A DNA stretch of 32,000 nucleotides from contig CP065004.1 in assembly GCA_016700135.1 (NCBI GenBank), positions 420,001 through 452,000 on the forward strand, read 5' to 3'. Shown here one piece after another: positions 1-16,893 of the stretch. Source of the stretch: Candidatus Saccharimonadota bacterium. GTDB taxonomy: Bacteria; Patescibacteriota; Microgenomatia; UBA1406; GWC2-37-13. The position numbers were made by a program, and so were the translations under genes. Below the pieces are notes generated by a model that ran no database searches, was not told the DNA's origin, and saw only the letters and a list, made by a program, of their open reading frames with translations. The number at the start of each line of letters is the position of its first letter. The first letter of the stretch is position 1.

Positions 1-599
1 CAGTAAAAAAATGTATCTTCTTTGTTGTCAGCAAACCAAGAGACACTTTTGTCAACGAACTCTTCATACTGTTCTCTATTCTGCTTCCATGCATTGATAT
101 CATACTGCTCAAAAATATTAAACGAATCGAACCCTCGGCTCAAACCCGTGAAATCGTCATGAAGTATCCCCGATGTTACAAAACTAACGGTTTTATACCC
201 GTTCTTTTGTAGAATGGCAGCAAGTGTCTCCGTGTCATTTAGACGTTCCGTGTTCGTAAATAATCCGCCCTCATCGGCGTGCTGCGGACTGGCATTAGAA
301 AAAATACCTGTCTGTGATGGAGATTTTCCGGTAAACAGCATAGCAAATGACGGATATGTCTGAGGTATCAGTGTATACGCGTTTTGAAATACCGTCGCCT
401 GTTTTGACAATTTTTTCAGGTGCGGATCTGTCTCTCTGTCATATCCGTAGGTTGAGAGATGATCAGGTCGGACAGTATCCACGGAAATCAGCACAATATT
501 TAAATCGGGATGTCGCAGATCTCTGGTTTTGTACGAAAGAAACCATACGCCCGCTATAATGACGGTACTGAGTAGAAGAGCTTGAAATATAGGTCTCAT
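1..599 (-). CDS. Sulfatase-family (alkaline-phosphatase superfamily) membrane-anchored protein, N-terminal ~199 codons; gene continues past window start
   Basis: Own reverse-strand translation from the ATG at 599-597: MRPIFQALLLSTVIIAGVWFLSYKTRDLRHPDLNIVLISVDTVRPDHLSTYGYDRETDPHLKKLSKQATVFQNAYTLIPQTYPSFAMLFTGKSPSQTGIF... It stays open to base 1, so it is absent from the ORF track. A TM helix is followed by the ISVDTxRxDHL metal-site block and a T-x-PS...TG block, typical of sulfatase-type enzymes. Confidence 0.7.
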   Translation of the reverse strand, partial: MRPIFQALLLSTVIIAGVWFLSYKTRDLRHPDLNIVLISVDTVRPDHLSTYGYDRETDPHLKKLSKQATVFQNAYTLIPQTYPSFAMLFTGKSPSQTGIFSNASPQHADEGGLFTNTERLNDTETLAAILQKNGYKTVSFVTSGILHDDFTGLSRGFDSFNIFEQYDINAWKQNREQYEEFVDKSVSWFADNKEDTFFY

Positions 600-657: not shown

Positions 658-1938
658 ATGCGGGATCTTAAAACGACTACAATCGAAACACTTACTAGGC
701 TGCAAGACATAGACATCATTGAGAGAATAGATAATTATTCCGAGCGTTTCTATGATGAGCCAAGGCACTTTTACTTTGGGACTGTGTTATCTTCTGATTA
801 TGAAAAAATTCTGAGGAAGGATTACTTTTATCATTCCGAACAGTCAATCGGAGTGGGAATATCTTTTGAATCACCCTATCATGCACTTTTAAAATCAATA
901 ATGGAAGCGGTTGAGCGTTTTTCTCAAAGATCCGTCCCTACTGATCGGATACGGTACCGAACTCTATCTGTCTCCGAACAAAAGGCTTCAATTTTTTTCC
1001 AATCTGAAGACTTAAACTTTAAACTCAAGCCGTTACAATTCGGCTTTGTGGAAGGAATGGATATGATTACAGGACAACCTGCGGAGGTCCCTGCACAATA
1101 CGTATACCTGGAGTCGTACCATAAACTGACAAATCATACTGAAACACTTTTTACCCCGGATATTTCCACCGGTACTGCGGCCGGTTTTGATGAAGAAAAG
1201 GTCCTCATGACCGGTATTTGTGAGATTGTAGAACGGGATGCTCTCATGTCACTTTACCTCAACTCGGTACCTTTGCATCCGATAGATACGCGAAGTTTAC
1301 CGTTTCAAAAGATAAAAAGGATAATAAATCTCTGCAGAAGATATCTCCTGACGCCGTATATTTTCATCATACAGACCGATTTACAGATTCCTGTCGCTAT
1401 GACAATACTGGTAGACAAGACGGGGTACGGAGCCGCTGTTTCAGTGGGTGGGGGATGCTCACCCGAGATTGAAAGTGCTATTATTCACAGTATTGAAGAG
1501 TCGCTGGCATTCCGATTTCTCATAAAACGGAAAATGAATGAGCTACGTACGACCGAATTCAATATAAAGCAAAGCGAAATTATCGACAATACATATATGC
1601 AAATGTACTGGAGCGCTTTGGATAAGATTAATGAATTATCGTTCTGGATTGATCAAGATCCTCTTCCCTATCAACATCCCGATAATCCGATACAAAAGCT
1701 CTCCGATTTTGTCTCTTTGTGTAAGAAAAGAAAGATTCCTCTGTATAATGTAAATATCACTCCAAAGCCTTTGCAAGATGCAGGAATAGTGGTGCGAAGA
1801 GCTGTTATGCCTACGCTTCAGCCATTTTATGATGATCGGACTAAACCATTTATTTATAAAAAGAGGATAGAGACGGTATCAAAAAAATTTAATAAACACA
1901 CCTATACCTTAAATCCCATTCCCCATCCGATACCATGA
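658..1938 (+). CDS. YcaO-type cyclodehydratase (azoline-forming class)
   Basis: 426 aa. YcaO hallmark blocks GVGISFESPYHALLKSIMEAVERFS and STGTAAGFDEEKVLMTGICEIVERDA. The C-terminus ...NPIPHPIP matches the PxPxP motif described for azoline-forming YcaOs. The stop overlaps the next start (ATGA). Confidence 0.85.
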   Translation: MRDLKTTTIETLTRLQDIDIIERIDNYSERFYDEPRHFYFGTVLSSDYEKILRKDYFYHSEQSIGVGISFESPYHALLKSIMEAVERFSQRSVPTDRIRYRTLSVSEQKASIFFQSEDLNFKLKPLQFGFVEGMDMITGQPAEVPAQYVYLESYHKLTNHTETLFTPDISTGTAAGFDEEKVLMTGICEIVERDALMSLYLNSVPLHPIDTRSLPFQKIKRIINLCRRYLLTPYIFIIQTDLQIPVAMTILVDKTGYGAAVSVGGGCSPEIESAIIHSIEESLAFRFLIKRKMNELRTTEFNIKQSEIIDNTYMQMYWSALDKINELSFWIDQDPLPYQHPDNPIQKLSDFVSLCKKRKIPLYNVNITPKPLQDAGIVVRRAVMPTLQPFYDDRTKPFIYKKRIETVSKKFNKHTYTLNPIPHPIP

Positions 1939-2690
1939 AAAAAATTGATATAAAAGAGCTCACTCAGACAAGAAGTCATGCGTACCAAAGATTTCATAAG
2001 AAAACGATTCTTTCGTCCATTCCTCAATTTGAGTTTATGCCTGATGAACTGCCTGAAGCAGCTACGAAAACCTACTATAAGTCGTATCCGCGATTCCCGG
2101 AGATCAAACTTCCGACGCCGGACATGAAGCTGGGAAAACTGAGCGAATCTTTTGAGCAAAGAACTTCTTCCCGAACCTTTTCCAACAAACCGGTTTCAAT
2201 GAAGCAGTTGAGCACACTTCTCCATTTCTCTGCCGGAGAACATAATAAAAATAAACGATTTTACCCTTCCGGCGGGGCAAGATATGGCTTAGAGACGTAT
2301 CTCATTTCAACAAATACTTCTCTTGAAAACGGTGTGTATCATTACTATGTTCCCGGACATTCTCTCGAAAAACTCCTTTCGATAGATACCGTAGATTTTC
2401 ACAAAGCATTTACCCCTTACAATCAAACATGGGCTAAGAATATGGGCTTCATGATTGTGATGACAGCCGTTATCGATAGAATATTCATCAAATACGGTGA
2501 GAGAAGCTATCGATTTGCGCATATCGAAGCCGGCCATATGGGGCAGAATATGTATCTGATCTCCAATCAAATCAGTCTGAATTGCTGCGGCGCAGCCGGC
2601 ATCGTTGATACATACTTTGAAAAAGTGCTGGATATCAACCTGGAAAAGGAGCCCATAATCTACACGGTGATTTTTGGCAGTATCGGTTGA
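1935..2690 (+). CDS. SagB-type (nitroreductase-fold, FMN) azoline dehydrogenase
   Basis: 251 aa. Blocks RTSSRTFSNKPVSMKQLSTLLHFSAG and RFYPSGGARYGLETYLI are typical of SagB/McbC-type dehydrogenases. Translationally coupled to the YcaO gene. Confidence 0.8.
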   Translation: MKKIDIKELTQTRSHAYQRFHKKTILSSIPQFEFMPDELPEAATKTYYKSYPRFPEIKLPTPDMKLGKLSESFEQRTSSRTFSNKPVSMKQLSTLLHFSAGEHNKNKRFYPSGGARYGLETYLISTNTSLENGVYHYYVPGHSLEKLLSIDTVDFHKAFTPYNQTWAKNMGFMIVMTAVIDRIFIKYGERSYRFAHIEAGHMGQNMYLISNQISLNCCGAAGIVDTYFEKVLDINLEKEPIIYTVIFGSIG

Positions 2691-2727
2691 TAAGTAAAGC
2701 CTAAACTGATAATGTATAACTATATCT

Positions 2728-3099
2728 ATGAAACTTCTCAAGTACATCATCATTCTTCTTTTTGTCGTGGTACTGGCCGAAGCATTTTATTTGTTCGTGA
2801 TCAAAGGCTTTCAGTTTGGTCCTAAGAAACAGAACACTGCACAAACAGCAATCACAAGGTCTCCTACAGCAACTCCGTCCGAACCGTCAGAGATTGAGAT
2901 TGATGAAAATCGGCTGGAAAGTATTGACCAATTTTATTACGACATTAACCCCAATATGGCCCTTGATCCTAAAGTGATTTACAGTCACATCTTTTATAAA
3001 AAAAGGTGTTACCCAGAAATCGGTCATACAAAATACTCATCAGGGAAGGATCTCTCAAATCGATCGTACCCCACGCAAAGCTTTTTACGGGTATTATGA
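2728..3099 (+). CDS. Membrane-anchored protein TM1, N-terminal part (frame broken at the A7 run 2998-3004)
   Basis: N-terminal TM helix (LLKYIIILLFVVVLAEAFYLFVI) followed by a P/S/T-rich linker (RSPTATPSEPSE). After the A-run the listed frame turns into Cys/His/Tyr-rich text and stops, while the adjacent frame stays open (next feature). Confidence 0.55.
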   Translation: MKLLKYIIILLFVVVLAEAFYLFVIKGFQFGPKKQNTAQTAITRSPTATPSEPSEIEIDENRLESIDQFYYDINPNMALDPKVIYSHIFYKKRCYPEIGHTKYSSGKDLSNRSYPTQSFLRVL

Positions 3100-3382
3100 T
3101 TCTGTCCTTACAATCAGACTGGTCAATTCGGATAATCCGAATATTGGAATCACCCTCAACTTCAGTGAAGAGGATCTGAAAAGGCTAAATGTTTTCATCG
3201 ACCTTGATGAGGAAATTCAAACTGCAAGTACGGACATCCTTAAGGTAGGAGACACGATTGTTGTTGAGGATACTATTGATGCTACCGTCTCTATTCCGAA
3301 TGAGGCTGCAGGACAGGATGGTTTCTTGACCAAATCTTGGGGATTTAATAGAATTAAGACAGTCATAACCAAAATAAACTAA
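3002..3382 (+). CDS. C-terminal continuation of TM1 in the adjacent frame (no start codon of its own)
   Basis: Own translation of the frame starting at 3002: KGVTQKSVIQNTHQGRISQIDRTPRKAFYGYYDSVLTIRLVNSDNPNIGITLNFSEEDLKRLNVFIDLDEEIQTASTDILKVGDTIVVEDTIDATVSIPNEAAGQDGFLTKSWGFNRIKTVITKIN*. About 127 open codons contain no Met. Removing one A from 2998-3004 joins it to ...VIYSHIFYKK. It loosely resembles the C-terminal half of the 12838-13329 protein. Confidence 0.5.
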   Translation, partial: KGVTQKSVIQNTHQGRISQIDRTPRKAFYGYYDSVLTIRLVNSDNPNIGITLNFSEEDLKRLNVFIDLDEEIQTASTDILKVGDTIVVEDTIDATVSIPNEAAGQDGFLTKSWGFNRIKTVITKIN

Positions 3383-3402
3383 TATCATTCATAACGATTT
3401 AT

Positions 3403-3960
3403 ATGCGAACAAAAATTCATAATTATTCGAAGCCGAAAATCACTTCAAAAAAAATCAAGAGTAATTTTTTTTACAGTAAAAGAATGTATGACGGTGAGGA
3501 TCTTCTTGCCGGTATGATGGATGTTAGGATTCTTGCACGGTCCGGCTCTTGTAGCTGTTTCCCTGATTATACGAAAGTACTCCTTCCCGGCAACAATACG
3601 AAATCGATAAGAGATATTCGAGAAGGAGACACGGTGACTTCATACAATCTTGATGAGAATAGATTGACTGAGAGCAAAGTCATGGAGCAAATTATTCATC
3701 TTGATGCAAAAGTACAGTACTTTATCATCAACGGGAATATCAAGACAACCGCAGAACATCCGTTCTGGGTAAACGGAGAAAGATGGACAAGAGCCCACGA
3801 GATAAAGGTAGGAGATTGGCTGCTTACACCGACAGGTGAAAAAGTGGAAATTTCCGATATCGAGTCTTATTCCGCAGTAGAGACAGTATACAATCTTGAG
3901 CTGGAAGGAGAAGAACACAACTATTTTGCAGAAAATGTACTGGTACATAACCAACGCTAA
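3403..3960 (+). CDS. 51-aa leader-like N-terminal peptide fused to a complete Hint (intein-fold) autoprocessing domain
   Basis: 185 aa. Hint block A is C52-FPDYTKVLLPG...IRDIREGDTV, block B is TAEHPFWV, and the terminal block is VYNLELEGEEHNYFAENVLVHN followed only by QR-stop. The N-terminal 51 aa contain Y8-SKPKI and end in SGSCS directly before Cys52 (codon 3556-3558). Confidence 0.8.
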   Translation: MRTKIHNYSKPKITSKKIKSNFFYSKRMYDGEDLLAGMMDVRILARSGSCSCFPDYTKVLLPGNNTKSIRDIREGDTVTSYNLDENRLTESKVMEQIIHLDAKVQYFIINGNIKTTAEHPFWVNGERWTRAHEIKVGDWLLTPTGEKVEISDIESYSAVETVYNLELEGEEHNYFAENVLVHNQR

Positions 3961-4785
3961 TGTAAGATGTCTCCGTTTTTGAAAAATGATATAACCTTTT
4001 CCTCGTCCTTGGGGAAATCAAGGTAATAAAAGTGATTAAACTCCGCTACAAACTTCAGAAATATTTCCATTTTGTCTTTTACCTGCACACCGTCATAAGT
4101 AAAATCACCTAAAAATAAATTCAGTATCTGCTTATTGTCTTCCAGTTTTGTGACTTTGACATTCGCTCGATTTTCTCAAAAAGAAGATTTTCCTGAGAGG
4201 ATAGCTTTCCGAATGCTTAGTTAGCCACCAATTCCTTTCCCATAACGGATTTTGGAAGCAATGGAAGGTATTCCCAATCTTTAATCAGGACAAATCATCA
4301 GCAAAACGGTGGAACTTTTTCCGTAGGAGTGTACTGATTGTAGTCTTCCCCGCCCCGGATTTTCCTAAAAAAAGATATGCTCTTCCTTCGTGAATAATGC
4401 TTGATGCATGCTGAAAAAATCCGGTATCTTTTATGAGAATACTCAGAATTTCCGTAATAATATAATGAAATTGAGACGTGCTTATGGAATAATAAGTTCG
4501 GATACGATTCGGAGATTTTTGCTCATAGAGATTGATAAAGTGAAATTTGCTTTGAATACCGGGAATGACACTCATGATATTGCTTTCCCGAAACTCAATC
4601 GTATAATCAACCTTTTTGGGCTTTTCCATAGAGACAAAGTCGCGAAAAAGCATCATTATCTCTCGCTGCAATTTGTCGCGAAGAAACACCGTAAAACGGG
4701 GCTTGATCATAACGACTTTAATTGAAAAGCCGATAATATTCAGATAAAAAGTACTCATAGATCCTTGTATAATAATCAGACCCAT
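3957..4785 (-). pseudogene. HPr-kinase-like P-loop kinase paralogue, inactivated (in-frame TGA plus one frameshift)
   Basis: The ORF 4285-4785 ends ...HASSIIHEGRAYLFLGKSGAGKTTISTLLRKKFHRFADDLS-TGA (4285-4287). The same frame continues as LKIGNTFHCFQNPLWERN...YPLRKIFFLRKSSEC, collinear with the 11615 paralogue (ADD..AFQLPLEKK..PIRALFYLSQS). A 1-nt frame change near 4158 then gives KVTKLEDNKQILNLFL...FLKFVAEFNHFYYLDFPKDEEKVISFF...-TAG (3957-3959). Confidence 0.65.
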
Positions 4786-4806
4786 TATAGCCTAATCATA
4801 ATCCGT

Positions 4807-7044
4807 ATGTCAGAGATTCATCCCATCATTCAAACCATTGAGAACAACGATGAGGCTTATATACTGTGGAAAGATCACAACATCAAAAATGCAATTGTTT
4901 TGCATATAGACGCACATTTAGATTACAGAAACGATCGTGCCGGACTTCATATCGGGAATTATCTAAAGCATGCAGTTAAAGAACATCTTGCAAAAACGAT
5001 CTACTGGATAGTGCCGGGAAGCGGCAAACAGTTTACAAGCAAGCGGCAAGCGATCAAACAAAAACTGCGTTCTGCAGGGATTCACGAAGAAATAGTACAA
5101 GCAAAATCAGGACTAACGACACTTATTGACCAAACTCGCTTGATCGTATGCCCCTTAGGACTACTACCGAAGACTATCGAAGAACCATATGTCATCGATA
5201 TTGATCTCGATTTTATGTTTTTTTCTTCCTGTCTTACGGCCGATCGGGTACGTAATATTGGCAAAAGATCGCCGTGGATCTCTACTGAGTATTTTGCAAA
5301 GACAATAAAACCGTTGGTAAAAAGTGCCGCATTGACTACTCTTTGCTACTCGACAACCGGAGGCTGGACTCCTATGAGATATCGCCATTTCGGAGATCAG
5401 ATTTTACATATTTTGGGAACTCAAAAGGACAGTATTCATCAAAGAATTATCGCTGGAAATTTTTTTACTTCGTTCTGGAAATATTTCAAAGATAATACAT
5501 TGCAGCAGGCGAAAAAATATTATCAGTCTGCTTTAGCACTGAATCCGACATACGCAAGTTTTTTCATGACTGACGGTCCTCTGTTCATATTGAAAGGTGA
5601 CTTGAGAAGTGCAAGAACAGAATTTTCCCGACTGCAGCAAATTGATCCTCAAAATATTTATGCAATCTTTGGCCTGGGCCTCGTGGAGCTACTTTCAGGC
5701 AATTTGACAAAAGCGAAGGTCTTGATGGAAAAAGCACGATCAATAACGAGTAATAAGGAAATTGTACTCTTTTTAATATATATACAGTCACAACTTGGTG
5801 AGCACGAGATGGTTCAAGAACTTCTGACGGAGTACAAAAAGAGTACGTTCCCTGAAAAACCGCTACCCACAAATGTTCTTAACGGGATACTCCATGAGAT
5901 CGCGGAAAAACTTAAGACAGAGCATCAGATAAAAAATATCGGACAGATGTATCTGTATCCGAATCCTCACGCGGTCACAGTATGGAAAAGGCTGGCGGAA
6001 TACTCCTCCAATAACATCGGAAACTGGACTGAAGAACCTGAAAGCCTTCGGCATACAGCAGCCGCAATCGAACTTGATCTTATCGAAAAAATGGTTGATT
6101 TATATTTCGAAAACCCTGCCGCATATGGAGGATATATGACATCCGGTGCGACGGAAGGAAATATTTTTTCTGCATGGCTGGGACGTAAATATCTTGAAAA
6201 GAAACCCGTGAAATCTCCTATCATACTTCTTGCCAATGACCTCGCCCATTACTCTATCTTCAAGGCAGCAGACGTAACCGGTCTAACCGTTCAATCCATC
6301 CCGGTCAATACCAAAGATTGGAACACGGATACCGACAAACTCATAAAAACAGTCGTCAAATTAAAGAAAAAAGGTATTTCAAAATTTCTTATACCTCTCA
6401 CTCTCGGATACACAGTCGGAGGGACAAATGATGACGTTCAAACAATTGTTCAGGAACTACGCCGGTTGAAAGAGAAAATGGGTATTGAGTATTTCCTTTG
6501 GATCGATGCCGCACTTTCCGGCCTTACCATACCGTTTCTTAAGAATGACTATAGATCCTATTTCTCTCAGGAAATCCATACGGTTGTCGTTGACTTTCAT
6601 AAGGCTCTCGGCGTCCCGATGCCGGCAGGATTTGTTCTCTACCGAAAAGAATTGGCGGGACCGATAAAAACGACTATCCCTTACCTGTCAACCGGTGACA
6701 GCACTCTCCTCGGTTCACGAAACGGAATTGCTCCAATAGCAGCCTGGATGAGTATCCATCAGTATGGATTTACCAAACTTTCCCGTATCCTTAAGAAAGA
6801 AATACATCGCAAGAATAGGATAATAAGCGAAGTGCGAAGAAAATTTCCGGATGCAAGAGTAATAACTGACAGCGATTCACTCCATGCCGCCATATTAGTA
6901 CATGAAGCGCTTCCTCAATCATTCTGTACACGATATGGGCTGCATCTCCGAAAATATACGATAAACAACAAAGAATACTTGTTGTATCCCTTGTTTTTCA
7001 TGCCCCGATGGGATCAGGAATATGCAAGCGGTCCGCGGGAATGA
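4807..7044 (+). CDS. Three-domain fusion: UPF0489-like N-domain, TPR repeats, and a group-II PLP-dependent decarboxylase-like C-domain
   Basis: N-domain: AYILWKDHNIKNAIVLHIDAHLDY and YVIDIDLDFMFFSS (UPF0489-like HxDxHxD and DIDLDFF blocks). TPR: AKKYYQSALALNPTYA and FSRLQQIDPQNIYAIFGLG. C-domain: GGYMTSGATEGNIFSAW, AHYSIFKAADVTGL, IDAALSGLTIPF and VVVDFHKALGVPMPAGFVLYRK (PLP-lysine D-x-HK block). The track starts at TTG 4765; I prefer ATG 4807 (MSEIHPII). TGTATAAT at 4766-4773 is a possible extended -10. Confidence 0.7.
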   Translation: MSEIHPIIQTIENNDEAYILWKDHNIKNAIVLHIDAHLDYRNDRAGLHIGNYLKHAVKEHLAKTIYWIVPGSGKQFTSKRQAIKQKLRSAGIHEEIVQAKSGLTTLIDQTRLIVCPLGLLPKTIEEPYVIDIDLDFMFFSSCLTADRVRNIGKRSPWISTEYFAKTIKPLVKSAALTTLCYSTTGGWTPMRYRHFGDQILHILGTQKDSIHQRIIAGNFFTSFWKYFKDNTLQQAKKYYQSALALNPTYASFFMTDGPLFILKGDLRSARTEFSRLQQIDPQNIYAIFGLGLVELLSGNLTKAKVLMEKARSITSNKEIVLFLIYIQSQLGEHEMVQELLTEYKKSTFPEKPLPTNVLNGILHEIAEKLKTEHQIKNIGQMYLYPNPHAVTVWKRLAEYSSNNIGNWTEEPESLRHTAAAIELDLIEKMVDLYFENPAAYGGYMTSGATEGNIFSAWLGRKYLEKKPVKSPIILLANDLAHYSIFKAADVTGLTVQSIPVNTKDWNTDTDKLIKTVVKLKKKGISKFLIPLTLGYTVGGTNDDVQTIVQELRRLKEKMGIEYFLWIDAALSGLTIPFLKNDYRSYFSQEIHTVVVDFHKALGVPMPAGFVLYRKELAGPIKTTIPYLSTGDSTLLGSRNGIAPIAAWMSIHQYGFTKLSRILKKEIHRKNRIISEVRRKFPDARVITDSDSLHAAILVHEALPQSFCTRYGLHLRKYTINNKEYLLYPLFFMPRWDQEYASGPRE

Positions 7045-7895
7045 AATTTGTATTCAGTCGGGTCAGAGATACCCGCCCGGAGAAAACTTTGTTTTCTATA
7101 CTGACAGAAATAACATCTGCCGCAGTGAATTTTGTAGTTTATCGGACTGATACAGCTAAACATTTTTTCGAGCGGATATCCTTTCTCAGTAGCCCAACGT
7201 ATCAAAATATCTTTGTCCCAAAAAAATCCGAGTTCTTTCTCTAAAGCAAGGGATGTATACTGCCAGTTCATGTCACCGGTCAAAATGCAAAGATTTTGCA
7301 TCACGCTTCGCATCGCCGTCAGCGTCTCATACTTCAAACTTTCTCCGTCTGACGTGACGAATGCAGAGAAGATCGTGCGGATTGATACATTCTTTTCTTC
7401 CTGAAGAAAAAGCGCATACTCGGCAGCATTCAGGGCTAAAAGACCGCTGTAAAGAGGTAAGCCTTTCCTCTGATTTGTGTCACTACTTACAACCTCCTGA
7501 GAATGCTCGGTGATCTTCCATCTGATCTCTTTCGGAGGCATAGGAACATCCAAGTACTGGACTGTCTGAAAAAGCTTAGCATATTTTTTCTGGAAAAACT
7601 GAGAGAAGAACCGTACTGCATTTTCTTCCCGTTGGATGCGCTTATGTCCTCTCCGGAAAAAAACAGGGTAGACCTGCATCTGATACTCTTCAAGAAGCAT
7701 TCCCCAAAGTATAGTAGAGTCCAAACCACCGGATACGGTGAGGATTACCGATTCTCCTTTTTGAGGCATGCGGAAAACATATCCCCGCTTCTCCTTCAAA
7801 AAAGACTCAATGCATTTCAAGGCTGAAAGGTCTTCAAGCTTTCGCTCTATTAACATTCTCTGTAGTTGTTTACTTGTGAGTTTCGGTAATTTCAT
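7014..7895 (-). CDS. QueC-like PP-loop ATP pyrophosphatase (7-cyano-7-deazaguanine-synthase family fold)
   Basis: 293 aa. PP-loop VILTVSGGLDSTILW, and a C-terminal zinc cluster SCISPINYKIHCGRCYFCQYRKQSFLRAGISDP matching the QueC pattern C..CG.C..C..R...F...G..DP. The start overlaps the upstream stop (ATGA at 7895). Its 3' end overlaps the convergent 4807-7044 gene by 31 nt. Confidence 0.7.
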   Translation of the reverse strand: MKLPKLTSKQLQRMLIERKLEDLSALKCIESFLKEKRGYVFRMPQKGESVILTVSGGLDSTILWGMLLEEYQMQVYPVFFRRGHKRIQREENAVRFFSQFFQKKYAKLFQTVQYLDVPMPPKEIRWKITEHSQEVVSSDTNQRKGLPLYSGLLALNAAEYALFLQEEKNVSIRTIFSAFVTSDGESLKYETLTAMRSVMQNLCILTGDMNWQYTSLALEKELGFFWDKDILIRWATEKGYPLEKMFSCISPINYKIHCGRCYFCQYRKQSFLRAGISDPTEYKFHSRGPLAYS

Positions 7896-8767
7896 CAGTA
7901 ACGAATCATAAAATTGCTTTTCCTTCCCCGTTTAAATTTTTTTATATAGGGAGAATATGTTGAGACTTTGATTTCTTTCTTGTTCGGAAAGAACTGAAAA
8001 ATCCGTAAAAACCCGTTTCCGCCTTTTTCGAGATCCTGAAAATTCTGTACGGCTTGATGAACTGCTTCTCCGCACGTATTAGCACTCATTATATAATTCT
8101 CTCCCGTTTGTGTATGAAAATGACCGGAGAGAACTAAACGGATATTGCAGTTTGTCTTGATAAGTTTATGCCAGATATCCTCACCGGCATTACCGAGACC
8201 GCCATAATGAGATATATCGCTCCGGTACGGCAGATCGTCGTAGACAAATGCATGTGTCGCAATTACGGCCATTGTATCACGGTGCCGTTTCAAGATGTTG
8301 TCAGCCCATTGCAGAATCTTATCTGACGGATCAATCTGCAGATGAATAAAAAGGAGAGAGAATGTGTCAACAACAATATGCTGATAACTATTCTGATTCC
8401 CGAGGTATCCTCCTCCGTACCATGATTGTTTTCGGAATTTCTTTATCGGGAAAAAATGATTATAAGTCTGGAAAGAAACTTGTTCATCGTCATAAAAATC
8501 AGCATCATGATTCCCGGGCGCCAAAGCATAAGGAATAACTCCATCAAGCTTGGACAGTTCTGCCGCCATTTTGTGCCATTGTGTCTGATCCGCTGAATTA
8601 TCATCAACGATATCCCCCAAATGCGAAACGAATCGGATGTTTAGTTTCTCCTTTTCCTTCAATATCCAATCCAGTTGTGCTGAAAAAATTTCAGGATATT
8701 TCGACGCATAGAGTTGTGTATCTGACAAAACAATAACGGAATAAAAGGGATTATGCCGAAAAAACAT
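7895..8767 (-). CDS. Calcineurin-like metallophosphoesterase
   Basis: 290 aa with the canonical motif series VLSDTQ, HLGDIVDD, APGNHD, ATHAF and LSGHFH. Confidence 0.8.
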   Translation of the reverse strand: MFFRHNPFYSVIVLSDTQLYASKYPEIFSAQLDWILKEKEKLNIRFVSHLGDIVDDNSADQTQWHKMAAELSKLDGVIPYALAPGNHDADFYDDEQVSFQTYNHFFPIKKFRKQSWYGGGYLGNQNSYQHIVVDTFSLLFIHLQIDPSDKILQWADNILKRHRDTMAVIATHAFVYDDLPYRSDISHYGGLGNAGEDIWHKLIKTNCNIRLVLSGHFHTQTGENYIMSANTCGEAVHQAVQNFQDLEKGGNGFLRIFQFFPNKKEIKVSTYSPYIKKFKRGRKSNFMIRY

Positions 8768-8772
8768 ATGAT

Positions 8773-9759
8773 TTATTGTATCCTGACACCCATCACATAG
8801 GCGGGATCTATCTTTGCGGAAATAATAAACTCATCTCCCGGTGAAACAGATAACTTTTTGTTTGCAGAGGCCTTCAAGACACCCTGCGGAGGAATATTCA
8901 GATTCTGTGCCAGATTCTGAACATGGTTTCTACTGAGTAAATCAATCTTTAACTTAGCACTTCCCAATGTTCCGAAATGCCCATCTTTATTGAATATTCC
9001 TGTATCTTTGGTATCCCCCACTGCCACTTCAACACGAGAAAAGGTGTACTCATGATGCACTACGATATGAAGGCTTTTATCCTTCACGTAATAATTATCT
9101 CCTTTTTCTGACAACAGGAATGACGGTTTTTCGCTAGAGTTAAGGAGAACAGCGTGCGGATACTGACCTTTAAATGAAATACCTCCTCCAAACTGCTCCC
9201 GAGATTTATGCTTCAGATCTGCAAAAGCAGTACCGGGAGAAAAAATTAAGGTTTGTTTAGGAGTCGTATCCTCCGGAAAAAAATCCATATCAAGAGAGTG
9301 TATAACAGAAGTTGCTCCCACTCCTTTTCCGCTATTTATAATGCATATGGCTTGCGGAAGCAGCTTCCCCGAGTAATATGGCCAGTCATGAAGCGCTTCT
9401 ACCTCCGGGTTATCCTCTTCTCGATATTCGGCAAGTTTATCTCCGAACGGTACAGCTGCAAACTGCTTGGTTCCCCAGAACGTCCAAGAATCTGTTTTTT
9501 TATCAAATACAAGAACACGTGAATACGCAGGTTCAGAATCCCAGTTCTTTTGTGCAGGAAGACTGGCTTTTCGATGTGCGAGCGTAATCAAATCAAGAAC
9601 TTTTGTATGAAACATTTCAGGAATAGACACGACTACGGCTTCACCCTGATGGAGGACAGTATTCAGTACACTTGAAAAAGAACATTCCTTTATAACGCTT
9701 ACTGAATGTACTGACTGAATAATCGTCGGATCGCCGGGAATAATCGGCAGCTTATGCAT
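8773..9759 (-). CDS. Hypothetical protein (328 aa) inside the PqqD-to-QueC-like operon; no recognised domain
   Basis: Long ORF with protein-like composition. It overlaps the upstream PqqD-like gene by 8 nt and lies 5 nt from the downstream gene. I recognise no motif. Confidence 0.6.
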   Translation of the reverse strand: MHKLPIIPGDPTIIQSVHSVSVIKECSFSSVLNTVLHQGEAVVVSIPEMFHTKVLDLITLAHRKASLPAQKNWDSEPAYSRVLVFDKKTDSWTFWGTKQFAAVPFGDKLAEYREEDNPEVEALHDWPYYSGKLLPQAICIINSGKGVGATSVIHSLDMDFFPEDTTPKQTLIFSPGTAFADLKHKSREQFGGGISFKGQYPHAVLLNSSEKPSFLLSEKGDNYYVKDKSLHIVVHHEYTFSRVEVAVGDTKDTGIFNKDGHFGTLGSAKLKIDLLSRNHVQNLAQNLNIPPQGVLKASANKKLSVSPGDEFIISAKIDPAYVMGVRIQ

Positions 9760-10045
9760 GAGAAGATTTTGTGGGTTTCTTTTCGATTAGTAATTTTTTC
9801 TTCATAAGTTTGTCTACAAACTCTTTCGTATCTTTCAGGGCTTTCTCCTGATTAATTTCATACTCATCGACCAGATATTTTACAAGATCACTAAAAGTCG
9901 CACCTTTTTTTAGCTGCTTGAAAAGATCAGCAGCCGTTTCGTTGAGGGTATGCAAAATTGAGGTTTCACCGTCGAAGATAAATACCTCCTCATTCACCTG
10001 CTGGACAACGAGGTCTTTTTTGAGTTTATATTTTGATTTCTTCAT
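9752..10045 (-). CDS. PqqD-family protein (RiPP recognition element-like), copy 2
   Basis: 97 aa. VVQQVNEEVFIFDGETSILHTLNETAADLFKQLKKGATFSDLVKYLVDEYEINQEKALKDTKEFVDKLMKKKLL fits the PqqD pattern (beta strands, then LN.t....w, then a 3-helix bundle). Confidence 0.75.
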   Translation of the reverse strand: MKKSKYKLKKDLVVQQVNEEVFIFDGETSILHTLNETAADLFKQLKKGATFSDLVKYLVDEYEINQEKALKDTKEFVDKLMKKKLLIEKKPTKSSHA

Positions 10046-10311
10046 ACGCTCTCAACTATATGTAACTTGACCAGTGACTGGATAAATGTCTTAACCTCCT
10101 TTTTGGCGTTGTTATTTGATATCTCGTACTCCTTCGTTAATGAAGCTATTATTTGCACCAATGTTTTTTTTTCTTTCAGGGACTGAAAAATGATAGAACC
10201 CGTTTCGTTAAACGTATAGAGTTTTGACTCTCCAGCATCAAAAATAATTATTCCTTCCGGAACCTTCTGAACAATAGCTCCCTTTCTGATTTCATATTTC
10301 TTTTCAGCCAT
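10042..10311 (-). CDS. PqqD-family protein (RiPP recognition element-like), copy 1
   Basis: 89 aa. IVQKVPEGIIIFDAGESKLYTFNETGSIIFQSLKEKKTLVQIIASLTKEYEISNNNAKKEVKTFIQSLVKLHIV. Overlaps copy 2 by 4 nt. Confidence 0.75.
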   Translation of the reverse strand: MAEKKYEIRKGAIVQKVPEGIIIFDAGESKLYTFNETGSIIFQSLKEKKTLVQIIASLTKEYEISNNNAKKEVKTFIQSLVKLHIVESV

Positions 10312-10318
10312 ATCGGGT

Positions 10319-10330
10319 ATAGTATACTAT
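10319..10330. promoter_or_regulatory. 12-bp perfect palindrome ATAGTATACTAT in the 26-bp divergent intergenic gap
   Basis: Read directly. It sits between the minus-strand start at 10311 and the plus-strand start at 10338. It contains TATACT/TATAGT -10-like hexamers facing both ways. Confidence 0.3.
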
Positions 10331-10337
10331 TTTTCAC

Positions 10338-11618
10338 ATGTCTGCAAAAAATAATGTAACAATTGATCTAAGAACTACCGATCACATTAAGTCATTCGGC
10401 CACAGCATGTACCCGATTCTTCACAACGGAGATATTATTTATTACAAAAAAACTCCTTATCAAAAAATCAAACTGAATGACATAATCATCTCCCAAAAGA
10501 ACAACCTTTATGTCACCCATAGAGTTATATATAAAACTTCGGATTATATTATTACAAAGGGAGATAATAATTTAGAAATTGACGAGCCGCTCTTGCCTGA
10601 ATCAATCATCGGTGTTGTAAATAAAGTACAACGAGGCAAAGTAACGTTTATCCCTGAAACCTATTACCTCCTCCAGTCTTCAATATATTACCAACATATA
10701 CATTCCGTGATTAAGGAAATGGAGCGCCATACGATCTCCTATGTATTGCTAAAAGGACTCCCTCTGCATCTAAAATATCACCAGGAACACCCGCGAAAAG
10801 GTTTTTTTGATTTTGATATTCTTATTTCTCCCACAGATAGAGACGTACTTATGAAAATACTGAATGATCTCGGTTTTAAAAGACGATATGATTTCCTTTC
10901 ACCAACCCACGAAAGACTTATGAACAAATCTATCGAAGAAACATGTATGAAGAAATTTGAAGGATTTAATATCGCAGTTGATATCCATTATGAAGCTGTA
11001 TTTATGATGACTCAGATCGGAACACTCAACCCTCTATATCATCAGAGCTACATTGACGGATTCACAAAGGAACTTTTTAACAATACCGTCACTTTTCAGG
11101 AACACGATCTTAAATGTCAGTTGCTTACTGATGAGTATCTCTTCGTATATCTCTCTCTACATTTTTTTCATCATAATTTTAAAAGTCTTCATCGACTAAA
11201 CCTAATCGCAGCGCTAATTCAATCAATTCCACGAGCAAAGCGTCACGGATTCTGGAAATCTGTTTTTTCTATCATTCACAAGTATCGTCTGCAAGGATAT
11301 ATTTACGGAACATTTATAAGTTTAGAAAAATACCTTCCGGCAACAAGTATTCCACAATGGTTCTTGAATAAAATACGACCGGGCAAAGCTCAATGTAATT
11401 ATTTAAAAAACTACTTTCTCACAGAGCATATTTATGAAGAATACAACGCTACCCGCGCCGGGATCTTATTATTTACACATCTATATATTCTTTCATATAA
11501 TCCATGGTACAAAAAAATACTCGTTTTTTTACAACCTGCAGTCATTTTCATGATGGTATGGCTTGTATACTATTACGTTACAACAAGATGTAAAAAATTA
11601 CTCCGTACATTTCTATGA
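10338..11618 (+). CDS. Fusion of an S24/S26-type serine peptidase domain and an NTP_transf_5-type nucleotidyltransferase domain, with a C-terminal TM helix
   Basis: N-domain: SFGHSMYPILHNGDIIYY...VTHRVIY...ITKGDNN (signal-peptidase/LexA-like G-x-SM-x-P block). Middle: ISYVLLKGLPLHLKYHQEHPRKGFFDFDILISPTDRDVLMKILNDLGF, matching the 'uncharacterised nucleotidyltransferase' family seen in lasso and sacti clusters. C-terminal: ILVFLQPAVIFMMVWLVYYYV. Confidence 0.65.
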   Translation: MSAKNNVTIDLRTTDHIKSFGHSMYPILHNGDIIYYKKTPYQKIKLNDIIISQKNNLYVTHRVIYKTSDYIITKGDNNLEIDEPLLPESIIGVVNKVQRGKVTFIPETYYLLQSSIYYQHIHSVIKEMERHTISYVLLKGLPLHLKYHQEHPRKGFFDFDILISPTDRDVLMKILNDLGFKRRYDFLSPTHERLMNKSIEETCMKKFEGFNIAVDIHYEAVFMMTQIGTLNPLYHQSYIDGFTKELFNNTVTFQEHDLKCQLLTDEYLFVYLSLHFFHHNFKSLHRLNLIAALIQSIPRAKRHGFWKSVFSIIHKYRLQGYIYGTFISLEKYLPATSIPQWFLNKIRPGKAQCNYLKNYFLTEHIYEEYNATRAGILLFTHLYILSYNPWYKKILVFLQPAVIFMMVWLVYYYVTTRCKKLLRTFL

Positions 11619-12418
11619 AGAACTCCGTAATTATCCTGAATACTGCCGCTATATATATTGCTATCGATTTATCACGAATAGCTGATCCTGATATCTTAAA
11701 AGCGCTCTCGGATCAAATCTCTACGTTCTATAAGATGGAGATTGTTAGGAATTTTAAGAAGAAACCGGATTTCACCATTTACTACGTTGCTGATGAAGAA
11801 TACCGATTTGTAAAACAGCAAATAAGGAAAGGAACCAGTATTAACTACTTCTTGGAAACCTTTAGCATTGGAGAGGACTCGGCAAAAATCCACTATCATG
11901 TAAGTATTGCTCAATTCCAATTCTTCTTAAAATTAATCTTACAATCGATTCTCGGGTCCCGAAAGGGTTTCATACTTCACTCCTCCGGAATCACAGACGA
12001 TCAGCATGCATTTCTGTTTTTAGGTCCGAACGGGATCGGAAAATCTACCATCGTAGATAACCTTTCACAAAAATATCGTCCCTATGCAGACGATATGGTG
12101 ATTGTCAGGAAAATTGAACGGGAGTGGTACGCTTTTCAGCTTCCTTTGGAAAAAAAACGTTATAAAAAGATCCCAGATTCAAAAATGCCGATTCGGGCAT
12201 TATTCTATCTGTCTCAAAGCAAAAAAACCAAATTACAGAAAATCTCTTCTACAGAGGCTAGTAAAAAGCTTCTTGACCAACTCATAAGAAACGGTCTCAC
12301 AAAAAAAAATATAACATATCTTTTTGAATTTTTAGCTTTTGTAGATCACTACATTCTTGAAACTCCGAAGAAGACTGCTATAAAAACTATTGAAGGATTA
12401 GTCAGCTCTTATCAGTAA
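11615..12418 (+). CDS. HPr-kinase-like P-loop kinase (RiPP precursor Ser-kinase type)
   Basis: 267 aa. GFILHSSGITDDQHAFLFLGPNGIGKSTIVDNL...YADDMVIV resembles the HprK C-terminal catalytic domain fold found in lasso-peptide kinases. 4-nt overlap with the upstream gene. Confidence 0.7.
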   Translation: MKNSVIILNTAAIYIAIDLSRIADPDILKALSDQISTFYKMEIVRNFKKKPDFTIYYVADEEYRFVKQQIRKGTSINYFLETFSIGEDSAKIHYHVSIAQFQFFLKLILQSILGSRKGFILHSSGITDDQHAFLFLGPNGIGKSTIVDNLSQKYRPYADDMVIVRKIEREWYAFQLPLEKKRYKKIPDSKMPIRALFYLSQSKKTKLQKISSTEASKKLLDQLIRNGLTKKNITYLFEFLAFVDHYILETPKKTAIKTIEGLVSSYQ

Positions 12419-12833
12419 GACGTTTTTTTAAAGAATCAATCTCTTTCTGCTGATCTTGGACCGCCTGCACAAGAAGTGATATTACGCCGGCATAATCTAC
12501 CCTCAACAGGCCGGATGTTTCAACAACAGACTCCGGGAGAACATCCCGAACATTTTGGGCGATCAGCCCTGCCGACTCCTTTGAAGTCCCTTTCCATGTG
12601 TACGTAACCGGCTCCAACTTCATCACTCGTGAAATTGAGTTCTTGAGAGGCTTCACAGAAACCTTTAACGACTTATCCGAATAAATAATCGGCAGATACA
12701 GGCTGTTGCTTGCGGCATATACCTCATTCATAAGTAAACCCTCAAGTAACGTATCGTCGTGATACCTTGAGAACAGATTTAATTGTATTTCCTCGACAGA
12801 TACCGACGGTGGAATAAATTTCTTTTTTTGCAT
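12402..12833 (-). CDS. 52-aa leader-like N-terminal peptide fused to a Peptidase_S74 (intramolecular chaperone, self-cleaving) domain
   Basis: 143 aa. From S52: SDKSLKVSVKPLKNSISRVMKLEPVTYTWKGTSKESAGLIAQNVRDVLPESVVETSGLLRVDYAGVISLLVQAVQDQQKEIDSLKKRL. This matches the S-D-x-x-x-K start, the G.IAQ.V..v.PE.V block, the VDY block and the terminal coiled coil of the endosialidase/tail-fibre chaperone domain. Only 52 aa precede it. Confidence 0.75.
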   Translation of the reverse strand: MQKKKFIPPSVSVEEIQLNLFSRYHDDTLLEGLLMNEVYAASNSLYLPIIYSDKSLKVSVKPLKNSISRVMKLEPVTYTWKGTSKESAGLIAQNVRDVLPESVVETSGLLRVDYAGVISLLVQAVQDQQKEIDSLKKRLTDKS

Positions 12834-12837
12834 AGCT

Positions 12838-13329
12838 TTAAAGCAGTTCCAAACTGATAGAGCTCGCCGAATTACTTAGAATATTATAATCAAATATTAT
12901 TCGGATTACGGTACCCGCCGTGATCAACTCCTGCATCTTCTCATATGTCGCAGGCTGCTTTTCGTCCTCGGAAGTTAGAATAACAGTTTTATCGATGGTT
13001 GCCTGATCGAAGTAAAACGAAACCTCTTCCTTCACACCAACAACTTTCACGGTCAGTTCTGCTATCTGAGATGAATCATTCTTACTCAAACCCAGTACAG
13101 TCCCCCTGTACACAAGGGAAGCTGATGCGGATTCCAGACCGGCAGTTTCTGCGATATAGACAGCCTGCCTTCCTTTTTGTTCAGGCTTCGGTATAGGCGA
13201 TGCGGTACTGAGTTTGCTGCCTACAGTCCCTGAAGCATTTCCTTTTCTATATAGAATAATTCCTGCTTCCACTACAATCACAATCAATAACAGAACGATC
13301 ACAGCAGGTAAAAAATATATTTTTTTCAT
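12838..13329 (-). CDS. Membrane-anchored protein TM2 (architectural twin of the 2728-3382 protein)
   Basis: 163 aa. TM helix FLPAVIVLLLIVIVVEAGIILY, P/S-rich linker STASPIPKPEQK, then a small beta-rich domain. Its stop is 4 nt before the S74-fusion start. Confidence 0.6.
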   Translation of the reverse strand: MKKIYFLPAVIVLLLIVIVVEAGIILYRKGNASGTVGSKLSTASPIPKPEQKGRQAVYIAETAGLESASASLVYRGTVLGLSKNDSSQIAELTVKVVGVKEEVSFYFDQATIDKTVILTSEDEKQPATYEKMQELITAGTVIRIIFDYNILSNSASSISLELL

Positions 13330-14875: not shown

Positions 14876-15095
14876 AAAAAAAAGAAACTATATAGAGGAA
14901 ATATTCAAATGCTGTCTGGATATGTACGGCATAAATTGCTGACAACAGTGTTGTAATGATAAAAAGGATCATTAATAATCCCAAGTTATAAAGAATTCGT
15001 ATCTGTACTTTGGATCGGATATACGTACTAAAAAAGCAAAAAGGAGTAATATAAAGAAGTATCATTGTGTTGTTCTCACCAGGAATAATCCCCAC
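14781..15095 (-). CDS. Probable N-terminal TM segment of the same Wzy_C gene, separated by the A10 (T10 on the coding strand) run at 14874-14883
   Basis: The ORF reads ...AFEYFLYIVSFFF then goes out of frame. Removing one T from the T10 run gives ...YIVSFFLIFIYVYNNANQIQKYVV, which is the start of the 13421-14875 ORF. The text is hydrophobic and TM-like. Confidence 0.5.
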   Translation of the reverse strand: MGIIPGENNTMILLYITPFCFFSTYIRSKVQIRILYNLGLLMILFIITTLLSAIYAVHIQTAFEYFLYIVSFFFDIYLCLQQCKSNTEIRSPVYCGIFTPQLVV

Positions 15096-16887: not shown

Positions 16888-16893
16888 GTTGAG

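Follow-up and report, generated by a model that had tools for sequence, protein, structure and literature searches.

The 32,000-nucleotide stretch at positions 420,001 to 452,000 of contig CP065004.1 (assembly GCA_016700135.1, Candidatus Saccharimonadota bacterium), hereafter called the window, contains a block of genes at positions 658 to 13,329 that includes a YcaO protein, a SagB-type dehydrogenase and two PqqD-family proteins. This block is a genuine and conserved peptide-modification cluster of the type that matures peptides made on the ribosome and modified after translation (RiPPs), since its gene inventory is real and its genes are co-conserved. It probably represents a two-module RiPP-type maturation system of Candidatus Roizmanbacteria and related lineages, whose precursors carry their own C-terminal release device. 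This device would be a Hint domain in one module (module A) and a Peptidase_S74 domain in the other (module B).

Organisation of the cluster

A sequence-only reading had described the block as one hybrid RiPP-like cluster without a stand-alone precursor, in which the gaps between the genes were too small to hold an unlisted open reading frame (ORF) of a short precursor. All genes that it listed are present where it had placed them, and its domain calls hold in Pfam and NCBIfam scans. The RiPP-like character of the cluster is likewise supported. A stand-alone short precursor is indeed absent, as none was found in the window by scans with leader hidden Markov models (HMMs), but two fused precursors are present. 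Each carries a self-cleaving domain, Hint or Peptidase_S74, which is why they had been missed. The supposed gaps are filled by four ORFs, at 2728-3379 and 3403-3960 and, on the minus strand, at 12402-12833 and 12838-13329. The genes of the two modules and of the platform that they share are listed below.

658..1938, plus strand: stand-alone YcaO protein of 426 amino acids (AA) (PF02624, E = 5e-34)
1935..2690, plus strand: SagB-type azoline dehydrogenase dependent on flavin mononucleotide (TIGR03605, 118.7 bits, cutoff 78.4)
2728..3379, plus strand: TM_A, small membrane-anchored protein, frameshifted (tblastn with the 216-AA orthologue of L026)
3403..3960, plus strand: Hint-fused precursor of 185 AA (PF07591 PT-HINT, E = 7.7e-14)
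3403..3543, plus strand: residues 1-47 of the Hint-fused precursor, a leader with ILARS at its end (alignment and leader HMM)
3544..3555, plus strand: putative core GSCS, residues 48-51 (hypervariable segment directly before Cys1 of the Hint domain)
3556..3960, plus strand: Hint domain C52-N183, followed by the tail QR and the stop codon (PF07591, A-type, similar to bacterial intein-like (BIL) domains)
3960..4758, minus strand: ScmC_A, HprK-like P-loop protein, disrupted as assembled (76 % identity to the intact 267-AA orthologue of L026 across the lesions)
9752..10045, minus strand: PqqD-family leader-binding protein 1, a RiPP recognition element (RRE) protein (PF05402, E = 6.7e-14)
10042..10311, minus strand: PqqD-family leader-binding (RRE) protein 2 (PF05402, E = 2e-13)
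10338..11618, plus strand: signal-peptidase-I-like (S26) domain fused to NTP_transf_5, with a membrane segment at the C-terminus (TIGR02228, 56.4 bits, cutoff 51.85; PF14907, E = 4.3e-17)
11615..12418, plus strand: ScmC_B, intact HprK-like P-loop protein (TIGR04249 ScmC, E = 3.4e-11, below cutoff)
12402..12833, minus strand: S74-fused precursor of 143 AA (PF13884)
12681..12833, minus strand: residues 1-51 of the S74-fused precursor, comprising its leader and conserved core (…EVYAASNSLYLPIIY) (alignment, leader HMM)
12402..12680, minus strand: Peptidase_S74 domain of the self-cleaving intramolecular-chaperone type, from Ser52 (SDKSLK) (PF13884, 49.6 bits, cutoff 22)
12838..13329, minus strand: TM_B, small membrane-anchored protein directly upstream of the S74-fused precursor (same position in L024, L025 and L006)

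Each module codes for one small membrane protein together with a precursor and a P-loop protein of the ScmC type, and the PqqD proteins and the single signal-peptidase-like/NTP_transf_5 fusion sit between the two modules. Stops and starts of neighbouring ORFs overlap, as seen in the ORF coordinates. Since the Hint/YcaO module is found without the S74 module at five loci (L001, L004, L023, L034 and L112), the window holds two adjacent modules on a shared platform and not one hybrid block as previously described. The parts reported as missing are confirmed to be so, as domain scans of the ORFs between 1 and 18 kb detected no lasso cyclase, B2 protease, E1-like partner or ATP-binding cassette (ABC) transporter.

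The Hint-fused precursor family

In 11 close homologues of the Hint protein, a conserved leader is followed by a hypervariable segment of Cys, Ser and Gly, the invariant Cys1 and a conserved domain. Their alignment gives the leader consensus Y.KP.I.SKKIK.NFFYS.R..D..LL.G, and the segments before Cys1 include RSGSCS, ASGSSS, QSACGC, QSGPLS, ...SCASSVPGCCT and ...GGSCCCGG. Further cores among the wider family are SCSCGC, HCCSSCGG and GGCGGCGGSGCGGCG. In 54 family members, the 12 residues before Cys1 consist of 10.6 % Cys and of 43.7 % Cys, Ser, Thr and Gly taken together, compared to 0.4 % and 16 % in the leaders and 1.2 % and 18.5 % in the Hint domain. The AlphaFold2 (AF2) model shows residues 1-49 as disordered, with predicted local distance difference test (pLDDT) values below 50 over the leader segment, and residues 50-185 as a confident Hint fold with pLDDT values above 90. 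Judged by this RiPP-type sequence pattern, the Hint protein is a precursor with a predicted leader, core and release domain.

An exhaustive profile search covered 1.84 billion representatives, and the best 150 matches were inspected. Among these, at least 49 clusters at 50 % identity have the layout of leader, Cys/Ser/Gly core and Hint domain. The 49 proteins are 177-211 AA long and match from about residue 2; one is a double-Hint protein of 338 AA. A scan of genome contigs with the close Hint alignment returned two true relatives among species representatives, which is an under-estimate of the family size, and the 54-sequence alignment is too divergent for a pattern-based locus search. The metagenome scan mainly returned generic marine Hint proteins without the leader, the informative loci being L031-L035 and L037. 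All family members with named source genomes belong to Candidatus Roizmanbacteria, a group of the candidate phyla radiation (CPR). The NCBI names of identical proteins place the genome of the window in this group as well, and near-identical clusters occur in L007 and L008, two species-representative metagenome-assembled genomes whose gene content and nearest named proteins likewise indicate Roizmanbacteria.

The border between leader and core is marked by a junction motif of two hydrophobic residues, Ala, any residue and one of Ser, Ala, Thr or Gly. This motif occurs in 29 of the 54 precursors, compared to 2.6 ± 1.6 in shuffled sequences, with LLAQS, VFAQS, ILARS and VYAAS as examples, and it is also present in the stand-alone and S74-fused precursors. 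The median distance from the motif to Cys1 is five residues, and in the window the segment is GSCS. Signal peptidases follow a -3/-1 rule in the choice of their cleavage sites. Since the junction motif fits this rule, the S26 domain of the NTP_transf_5 fusion would be the best candidate for the leader peptidase.

Several members vary this layout. Double-Hint precursors are found in L033 and P0097, and in L033 (5870-6904) MKSGGGGGGG lies between the tandem Hint domains. Short pre-Hint segments together with Cys/Gly-rich tails after the terminal His-Asn occur in P0134 (RGNCCCTSTCAC), P0084 (KSVCSGC), P0171 (SKTSCGGSSCSA) and P0145 (QGCGGGGGY), and P0077 is also listed among the variant precursors. 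These variants suggest that residues after the Hint domain may serve as core as well, or that ligation takes place.

Predicted cleavage competence of the Hint domain

All 54 sequences share C52, T116 and H119, and at least 90 % of them also keep H182 and N183. Cys1 directly follows the core, and the protein ends in ...LVHN-QR. The +1 residue is non-nucleophilic, being Gln in the window and mostly Lys, Gly, Ala, Gln, Arg or Tyr elsewhere. The best Foldseek matches of the HINT fold are BIL2 of Tetrahymena BUBL (6y75) and a BIL domain of C. thermocellum (2lwy), with target-normalised TM-scores of 0.82-0.85, and these BIL matches rank above mini-inteins and Hedgehog. The fold, an N-terminal nucleophile with T-x-x-H, and His-Asn followed by a non-nucleophilic +1 residue are the features of A-type HINT domains, and all of them were found here. 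With Cys1, the T..H of block B and the C-terminal His-Asn kept, the domain is predicted to be cleavage-competent. Reports on BIL domains with a non-nucleophilic +1 residue describe mainly cleavage at the N- and C-termini (PMC7664689, PMC7765530).

The S74-fused precursor and the shared leader family

In the S74-fused precursor, the nucleophile Ser directly follows the core. The Peptidase_S74 match starts at residue 52 and covers model positions 1-57 of 58. S52, D53, L56 and K57 are invariant, and the dyad S-D-x-x-x-K is present in all aligned members. The core of this type (EVYA.SNS.YLP.I) is conserved, unlike the hypervariable core of the Hint type. Only 51 residues precede the domain, so that the long passenger of trimeric tail fibres and spikes is lacking.

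Both precursor types start with the same family of basic leaders of about 30-45 residues. At locus L024, a stand-alone Cys-rich peptide of 59 AA (MKKKFVSPSIKSKKVQVNFFSTSRVVDGEMLLSHALLAQSGCGYTIYQCMNPNCTGVCI) adjoins a radical S-adenosylmethionine (SAM) enzyme, ScmC and a small membrane protein. Among 5307 segments searched, an HMM built from the Hint-type leaders alone matched this peptide with E = 5.9e-10 and the S74-type precursor of L006 with E = 1.4e-6. An HMM built from the S74-type leaders alone matched the peptide with E = 3.4e-7, and tblastn with the peptide itself matched the window at 12768-12827 (E = 7e-5). Because of these cross-matches, one leader family appears to serve three precursor architectures, namely Hint-fused, S74-fused and stand-alone. 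The region 321-3141 of L024 forms a third type of module, with ScmC, the radical SAM enzyme of 486 AA, the 59-AA precursor and the small membrane protein; this radical-SAM module has no tblastn match in the window.

Co-conservation across loci

The sequence-only reading had asked whether the homologues of the cluster genes are scattered, and they are instead strongly co-localised, with synteny in at least 10 independent contigs and down to 30-40 % protein identity. Neighbourhoods were compared for precursor homologues of 36-88 % identity from about 12 lineages. An ScmC gene abuts the precursor in every one of these lineages. YcaO and SagB lie directly upstream of the precursor in about 10 of 12, the exceptions being L111 and possibly L035, and in relatives YcaO is always followed directly by SagB. 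Most lineages, among them the distant L033, L034, L035, L037 and L112, also have PqqD and the S26/NTP_transf_5 fusion, and in most lineages a small membrane protein precedes the precursor.

The leader-handling platform

The PqqD proteins, ScmC and the peptidase/NTP_transf_5 fusion had been regarded as lasso-type accessory enzymes. However, the set accompanies one leader family in three contexts: with Hint and YcaO/SagB, with S74, and with the stand-alone peptide and the radical SAM enzyme. This distribution points to a recurrent leader-handling set and not to borrowed lasso parts. Both PF05402 proteins resemble the PqqD-like B1 proteins of lasso systems (E of about 1e-13), and the lasso-specific NCBIfam models give 33-44 bits on them, below the cutoffs of 70-80. 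The assignment of each PqqD paralogue to one module was rejected, as both PqqDs of L006 are nearer to PqqD1 than to PqqD2.

ScmC_B contains the Walker A motif GPNGIGKST and then ADD. The Walker A motif, D159 and D160 are invariant in the ScmC family, and the orthologues carry PF27840 ScmC. Searched as a profile, ScmC matches the HPr kinase/phosphatase 1ko7 over 80 residues with E = 0.0023, and most of the matches are generic P-loops (Walker A). Single-sequence searches of ScmC and of the QueC-like protein of the cluster against the PDB returned nothing useful.

The fusion with NTP_transf_5 had been correctly recognised, but its peptidase part, then called S24, scores best as signal peptidase I of family S26 (TIGR02228), which is in the same clan as S24 and is of the Ser-His type. 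The S26 motifs GxSMxP, THRV and KGDNN are kept in 9-10 of 11 orthologues, and in genomes with two S26 copies one copy is degenerate. The fusion protein is a candidate leader peptidase and nucleotidyl/glycosyl-phosphate transferase. On Firmicute lasso precursors, an HprK homologue carries out phosphorylation and a nucleotidyltransferase, sometimes fused to the leader protease, adds a hexose to that phosphate (PMC8498205).

TM_A has about 216 AA in relatives, and a gene of such architecture precedes the precursor at nearly every locus. TM_A and TM_B have a common architecture and weak sequence similarity. Comparisons between the small membrane proteins of different modules give 10-16 bits, mostly from the transmembrane helix, so that these proteins are positional and architectural analogues only.

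Disrupted genes in module A

The lesions of module A lie at 2990-3005 and 4140-4290 of the window, and the Hint precursor gene between them is intact. TM_A contains one extra A near position 3000, with a run of seven A in the window versus six in L007, and is matched by tblastn as two segments in different frames. ScmC_A, the HprK-like copy that had already been judged dead, is interrupted, when compared to intact 267-AA orthologues, by a TGA that follows ...FADDLS in frame and by a +1 frameshift close to 4150. In the comparison with L007, the TGA is created by gaps of one and two bases, and the +1 shift follows about 50 codons further on. Reading the TGA as a sense codon of an alternative code was rejected because of these flanking gaps and the separate downstream frameshift. 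The lesions of both genes could be long-read assembly errors or the result of recent decay and pseudogenisation.

Proposed maturation pathway

The sequence itself shows the architectures, conserved catalytic residues and linked genes, and from there we infer the enzymatic steps. The PqqD proteins would bind the leader, and ScmC would probably join as an HprK-like ATP-dependent kinase. YcaO would then use ATP to cyclodehydrate Cys and Ser of the core to azolines, which SagB would oxidise to azoles. Cys1 of the Hint domain would attack the carbonyl of Ser51 in an N-to-S acyl shift, making a thioester of the final peptide bond of the core by the same hemiorthoamide chemistry that YcaO would use. 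Hydrolysis of this thioester or its capture by an amine would set the modified leader-core peptide free from the domain, and the equivalent cut in module B would be made by the Ser-Lys dyad of S74. The signal-peptidase-like domain, acting in the cytoplasm, would remove the leader after the A-x-S junction, and NTP_transf_5 may, together with ScmC, add a phosphate-linked group as on phosphorylated or glycosylated Firmicute lasso peptides.

In a more tentative extension of this pathway, which is possible but which we would not expect to hold, the Hint domain serves as chemistry in its own right. The thioester, formed at the C-terminus of the newly heterocyclised mini-peptide, would be captured by an amine or an internal nucleophile to give a C-terminally capped, conjugated or cyclised polyazole, and a phage-derived S74 domain would act in parallel, making this a large and undescribed class of precursors. 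The capturing amine could come from the arginase-like/decarboxylase protein of the cluster, which is dependent on pyridoxal phosphate (PLP).

Of the features of clusters for linear azol(in)e-containing peptides and thiazole/oxazole-modified microcins (LAP/TOMM), a YcaO domain, a SagB dehydrogenase and a leader with a variable core rich in Cys, Ser and Thr were found, the precursor having the unusual form of a Hint domain after the core. The YcaO protein ends in NPIPHPIP, and the PHP motif is kept in nine orthologues. It lacks a fused E1-like or N-terminal domain, and its best NCBIfam match is TIGR03604 SagD with 144 bits, below the cutoff of 219.

Several points weigh against the proposed system. 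Every activity is assigned by family membership, and the kinase assignment of ScmC comes from weak similarity (1ko7, E = 0.0023; TIGR04352, E = 0.005). Azoline-forming YcaO proteins usually need an E1-like or Ocin-ThiF partner. Neither an E1-like (C) nor an Ocin-ThiF (F) partner was found in the ORFs of 1-18 kb and the YcaO score is below the TIGR03604 cutoff, and therefore the chemistry could differ from azoline formation. Some members with YcaO/SagB have few or no Cys and Ser in the core, as in L034/P0058 with GPGH, and the Cys-rich member L111 has no YcaO within 8 kb. The leader likeness between the S74-fused precursor of the window and the Hint-fused precursors is only transitive, via L024 and L006. 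No exporter was detected in the ORFs scanned. Finally, two genes of module A, ScmC_A and TM_A, are disrupted as assembled, and module A may therefore be inactive or may depend on ScmC_B.

Alternative explanations

The Hint domain could be a BIL-type splicing element that excises itself and joins ...GSCS to QR, in which case the mature peptide would keep the tail and the core would span both flanks. We consider this unlikely, since hardly any member has Cys, Ser or Thr as its +1 residue, BIL domains that lack such a nucleophile mainly cleave and do not ligate (PMC7664689), and most tails are short and unremarkable. Nevertheless, the C-terminal His-Asn is kept in more than 90 % of the 54 members though the tail has only 2-30 residues, and the members with a short pre-Hint segment and a Cys/Gly-rich tail (P0134, P0084, P0171 and P0145) as well as the double-Hint precursors of L033 and P0097 would also fit splicing. 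The same holds for the precursors of the clade with the arginase-like protein, all eight of which end in Arg (HNQR or HNYR; QR at 3952-3957 in the window), compared to none of nine outside it. This correlation comes from a single clade and amounts to about one evolutionary event, and is therefore a lead and not a statistic. A different use of the thioester, to which we give a small chance, would be the covalent attachment of the modified peptide to an envelope component or a protein with the participation of Wzy_C proteins, leading to a non-diffusible product. This is how Hedgehog (with cholesterol) and the BIL-ubiquitin-like proteins of Tetrahymena act, and the best structural match of the Hint domain is BIL2 of the Tetrahymena BUBL1 locus. 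Wzy_C genes flank the cluster in the window as well as L001, L004, L024 and L112, but this adjacency may be plain local synteny of related small genomes. A transporter is absent, and a small membrane-anchored protein is present in every module. The biology of CPR bacteria depends on surface contact, and the hosts belong to these bacteria. However, nothing points to an acceptor molecule, and the hypervariable cores look rather antagonistic or signalling.

Two further explanations question the precursors or the cluster itself. According to one of them, the Hint and S74 proteins are a decayed pretoxin-HINT cassette and the tip of a prophage tail fibre, and the true substrate of YcaO and SagB lies elsewhere or is a protein. 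Neither protein carries a toxin domain or a tail-fibre shaft, and length, position and catalytic residues are constant in both across many lineages. In addition, both carry the leader that is also found on a classic short peptide rich in Cys, encoded next to a radical SAM enzyme, and the leader-core-Hint layout recurs in at least 49 clusters at 50 % identity. The best Pfam match, Pretoxin-HINT, and the NCBI name of the S74 protein, 'tail fiber domain-containing protein', speak for such remnants, but the reading is largely refuted and retains only a very slight chance. Almost none is left for a fortuitous adjacency of the genes or for an anti-phage defence island of the QueC-like/Qat type, which is refuted by the synteny over at least 10 contigs. 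The QueC-like and phosphoesterase proteins do have weak QatC and 'DS8 antiphage' matches, but PADLOC returned nothing beyond generic matches to QueC and P-loop proteins, without any system partners. Since the QueC-like, phosphoesterase and 328-AA genes are absent from distant Hint/YcaO loci, they belong to the RiPP module as accessories and do not form a system of their own.

Clade-specific genes and neighbouring regions

The two-module maturation system is accompanied in the window by the following further genes.

3..599, minus strand: protein of the sulfatase/alkaline-phosphatase superfamily, first 200 residues (tblastn with the L026 sulfatase, 68 % identity, residues 1-200)
4807..7044, plus strand: arginase-like/tetratricopeptide repeat (TPR)/group II PLP-dependent decarboxylase protein of 745 AA (Pyridoxal_deC, E = 2.2e-12, and TPR)
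7014..7895, minus strand: QueC-like PP-loop ATP pyrophosphatase of 293 AA (PF06508, E = 2e-10; SGGLDS motif and C-terminal Cys cluster)
7895..8767, minus strand: calcineurin-like metallophosphoesterase (PF00149, E = 8.1e-14; syntenic in relatives)
8773..9759, minus strand: 328-AA protein of a narrow family (no Pfam or NCBIfam match)
13421..18126: block of a Wzy_C protein, a secreted protein of 568 AA and a second Wzy_C protein (Wzy_C, PF04932)

The genes for the arginase-like/TPR/decarboxylase, QueC-like, phosphoesterase, 328-AA and sulfatase proteins are confined to a Roizmanbacteria subclade comprising the window, L004, L006, L007, L024 and L026. The best guess is that they are tailoring genes acting on the C-terminus of the peptide, where the decarboxylase could supply an amine and the QueC-like PP-loop enzyme could activate a carboxylate. 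The terminal Arg of all eight precursors of the clade with the arginase-like protein, described above, is a lead here as well.

The 745-AA protein probably starts at the ATG at 4807. Its decarboxylase part has histidine decarboxylase as best NCBIfam match, with 168 bits and thus below the cutoff of 305, and keeps the PLP-lysine motif DFHK. The N-terminal domain (UPF0489/arginase fold) gives only a weak best match in the PDB, to OspR (8brp, E = 0.015), and within this arginase-like domain (4807-5520) the metal motifs DxHxD and DxD are invariant. The binuclear manganese site of OspR consists of His12, Asp39, His41, Asp43, Asp165 and Asp167 (PMC10028609). The equivalent of His12 is Asn in the fused proteins of the window, L026 and L024, and His in L004 and L006, where the protein is split into two genes.

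The QueC-like gene is syntenic in L004, L006, L024 and L026. Among 5.8e9 proteins, the 328-AA family amounts to only 10 clusters. The protein is predicted to fold as two beta-sandwich (jelly-roll) domains in tandem (AF2 pLDDT 85.8), and the Foldseek matches, to tandem CBM22, PNGase F, peptidylglycine alpha-hydroxylating monooxygenase (PHM) and bicupins, have TM-scores of about 0.25 and are not diagnostic.

The sulfatase gene runs past the left edge of the window, so that the block is cut at this boundary. It adjoins YcaO in L006, L026 and L027 and is probably part of the cluster. In Roizmanbacteria loci, a sulfatase and an FG-GAP protein adjoin YcaO, and two arylsulfotransferase genes flank the distant Hint/YcaO locus L023 (1204-6569). 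The chemistry of sulfate or phosphate esters may thus recur as an accessory theme.

To the right of the modules, the block of two Wzy_C proteins and the 568-AA protein, which belongs to no family, has a counterpart in L024 (4725-9393) between the S74 and radical-SAM modules. The distant loci L001, L004 and L112 are likewise flanked by genes for Wzy_C. As a recurrent neighbour, the block is possibly associated with the cluster, and it may relate to export or surface attachment. It is followed by a tRNA-Gln(CTG) at 18136-18207, beyond which the G+C content falls from about 0.44 to 0.29-0.35. The region 18400-32000 codes for a PIN-domain protein, a pentapeptide-repeat protein and an AbiEi/helix-turn-helix-like protein, with adjacent N6/N4 DNA methylase ORFs at 25733-26512 and 26472-27176, and looks like an integrated element or a defence island. 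In L024, the radical-SAM module lies beyond the second Wzy_C gene and occupies the position that this low-G+C region has in the window.

Relation to known systems

The closest parallels to the Hint/YcaO module are LAP/TOMM systems such as those of streptolysin S (SagBCD) and microcin B17 (McbBCD), with which it has in common the translationally coupled YcaO and SagB and a leader followed by a hypervariable core rich in Cys, Ser and Gly. However, stand-alone PqqD and ScmC proteins take the place of the E1-like C or Ocin-ThiF F protein, and there is no ABC exporter or CaaX-type protease. The core has a median length of five residues and is followed by a Hint domain of 134 residues instead of a stop codon. 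This domain shares the HINT fold, Cys1, T..H, His-Asn and the non-nucleophilic +1 residue with BIL domains, BUBL proteins and the Hog domain of Hedgehog. As expected for BIL domains, it would form an N-terminal thioester and cleave rather than splice, and it adjoins a hypervariable segment, as they do. Known BIL domains are embedded in large proteins that are secreted or variable, or are found on the flanks of ubiquitin-like domains, whereas here the Hint domain is the C-terminal part of a RiPP-type precursor of about 185 residues that is coupled to YcaO, SagB, PqqD and ScmC. The Peptidase_S74 domain resembles those of phage endosialidases, tail fibres and MYRF in its full-length match from the nucleophile Ser, its Ser-x4-Lys dyad and its C-terminal helical tail. 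It differs in its position after a 51-residue leader and core within a cellular peptide-maturation module, and in the lack of a long trimeric fibre.

The platform proteins have their counterparts elsewhere. PqqD, an HPr-kinase-like protein and NTP_transf_5 also occur together in the Firmicute lasso systems of paeninodin and pseudomycoidin, where the transferase is sometimes likewise fused to a leader-type protease. The present cluster is not a lasso system because the cyclase and the B2 protease are absent: no Asn_synthase match was found in the scanned ORFs, in which the 293-AA QueC-like protein is the only PP-loop protein. In addition, the fused protease is of the S26 type and not transglutaminase-like. 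Similarity is also seen to Haft's SynChlorMet (ScmC/ScmD) and HPr-rel-A systems, as ScmC is the best NCBIfam model and the sister module of L024 has a radical SAM partner. However, all SynChlorMet and lasso equivalog cutoffs are missed here, with 43 bits for TIGR04249 (cutoff 125) and 19-27 bits for TIGR04248 (cutoff 100), and the set serves three precursor architectures. Since these cutoffs are missed and the window scans detected no radical SAM/SPASM maturase, the cluster is not a SynChlorMet equivalog. Finally, OspR of the landornamide pathway is the best PDB match of the arginase-like domain and shares its DxHxD and DxD manganese motifs, but the match is weak (E = 0.015), the equivalent of His12 is Asn, and the domain is fused to TPR and a PLP decarboxylase.

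No description of Hint- or S74-fused RiPP precursors or of the ScmC platform was found in open-access PMC papers and bioRxiv preprints, and NCBIfam contains no model for such precursors. The combination therefore corresponds to no RiPP class described in the searchable literature, as the sequence-only reading had supposed. YcaO clusters of CPR bacteria have been noted only as antiSMASH hits and attributed to thioamidation of methyl-coenzyme M reductase (PMC12153355).

Significance

Mining tools for RiPPs search for short stand-alone precursor ORFs. Here, the precursors are hidden in proteins of about 145-210 residues that are named 'Hint domain' or 'tail fiber domain' proteins, and pathways of this kind are now called precursor-less or are mis-explained. 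The finding also provides a testable role for the widespread and uncharacterised set of ScmC, PqqD and NTP_transf_5.

Little is known about the specialised metabolites of CPR bacteria, and the present family shows its diversity in falling into at least 49 clusters at 50 % identity. Its cores are hypervariable, which suggests diversifying selection on the products. Should the thioester be put to productive use, no earlier natural RiPP pathway would have employed intein chemistry for C-terminal functionalisation, and the Hint domain would offer a compact, genetically encoded handle for peptide engineering. If true, it would be the natural counterpart of expressed protein ligation within a RiPP pathway.

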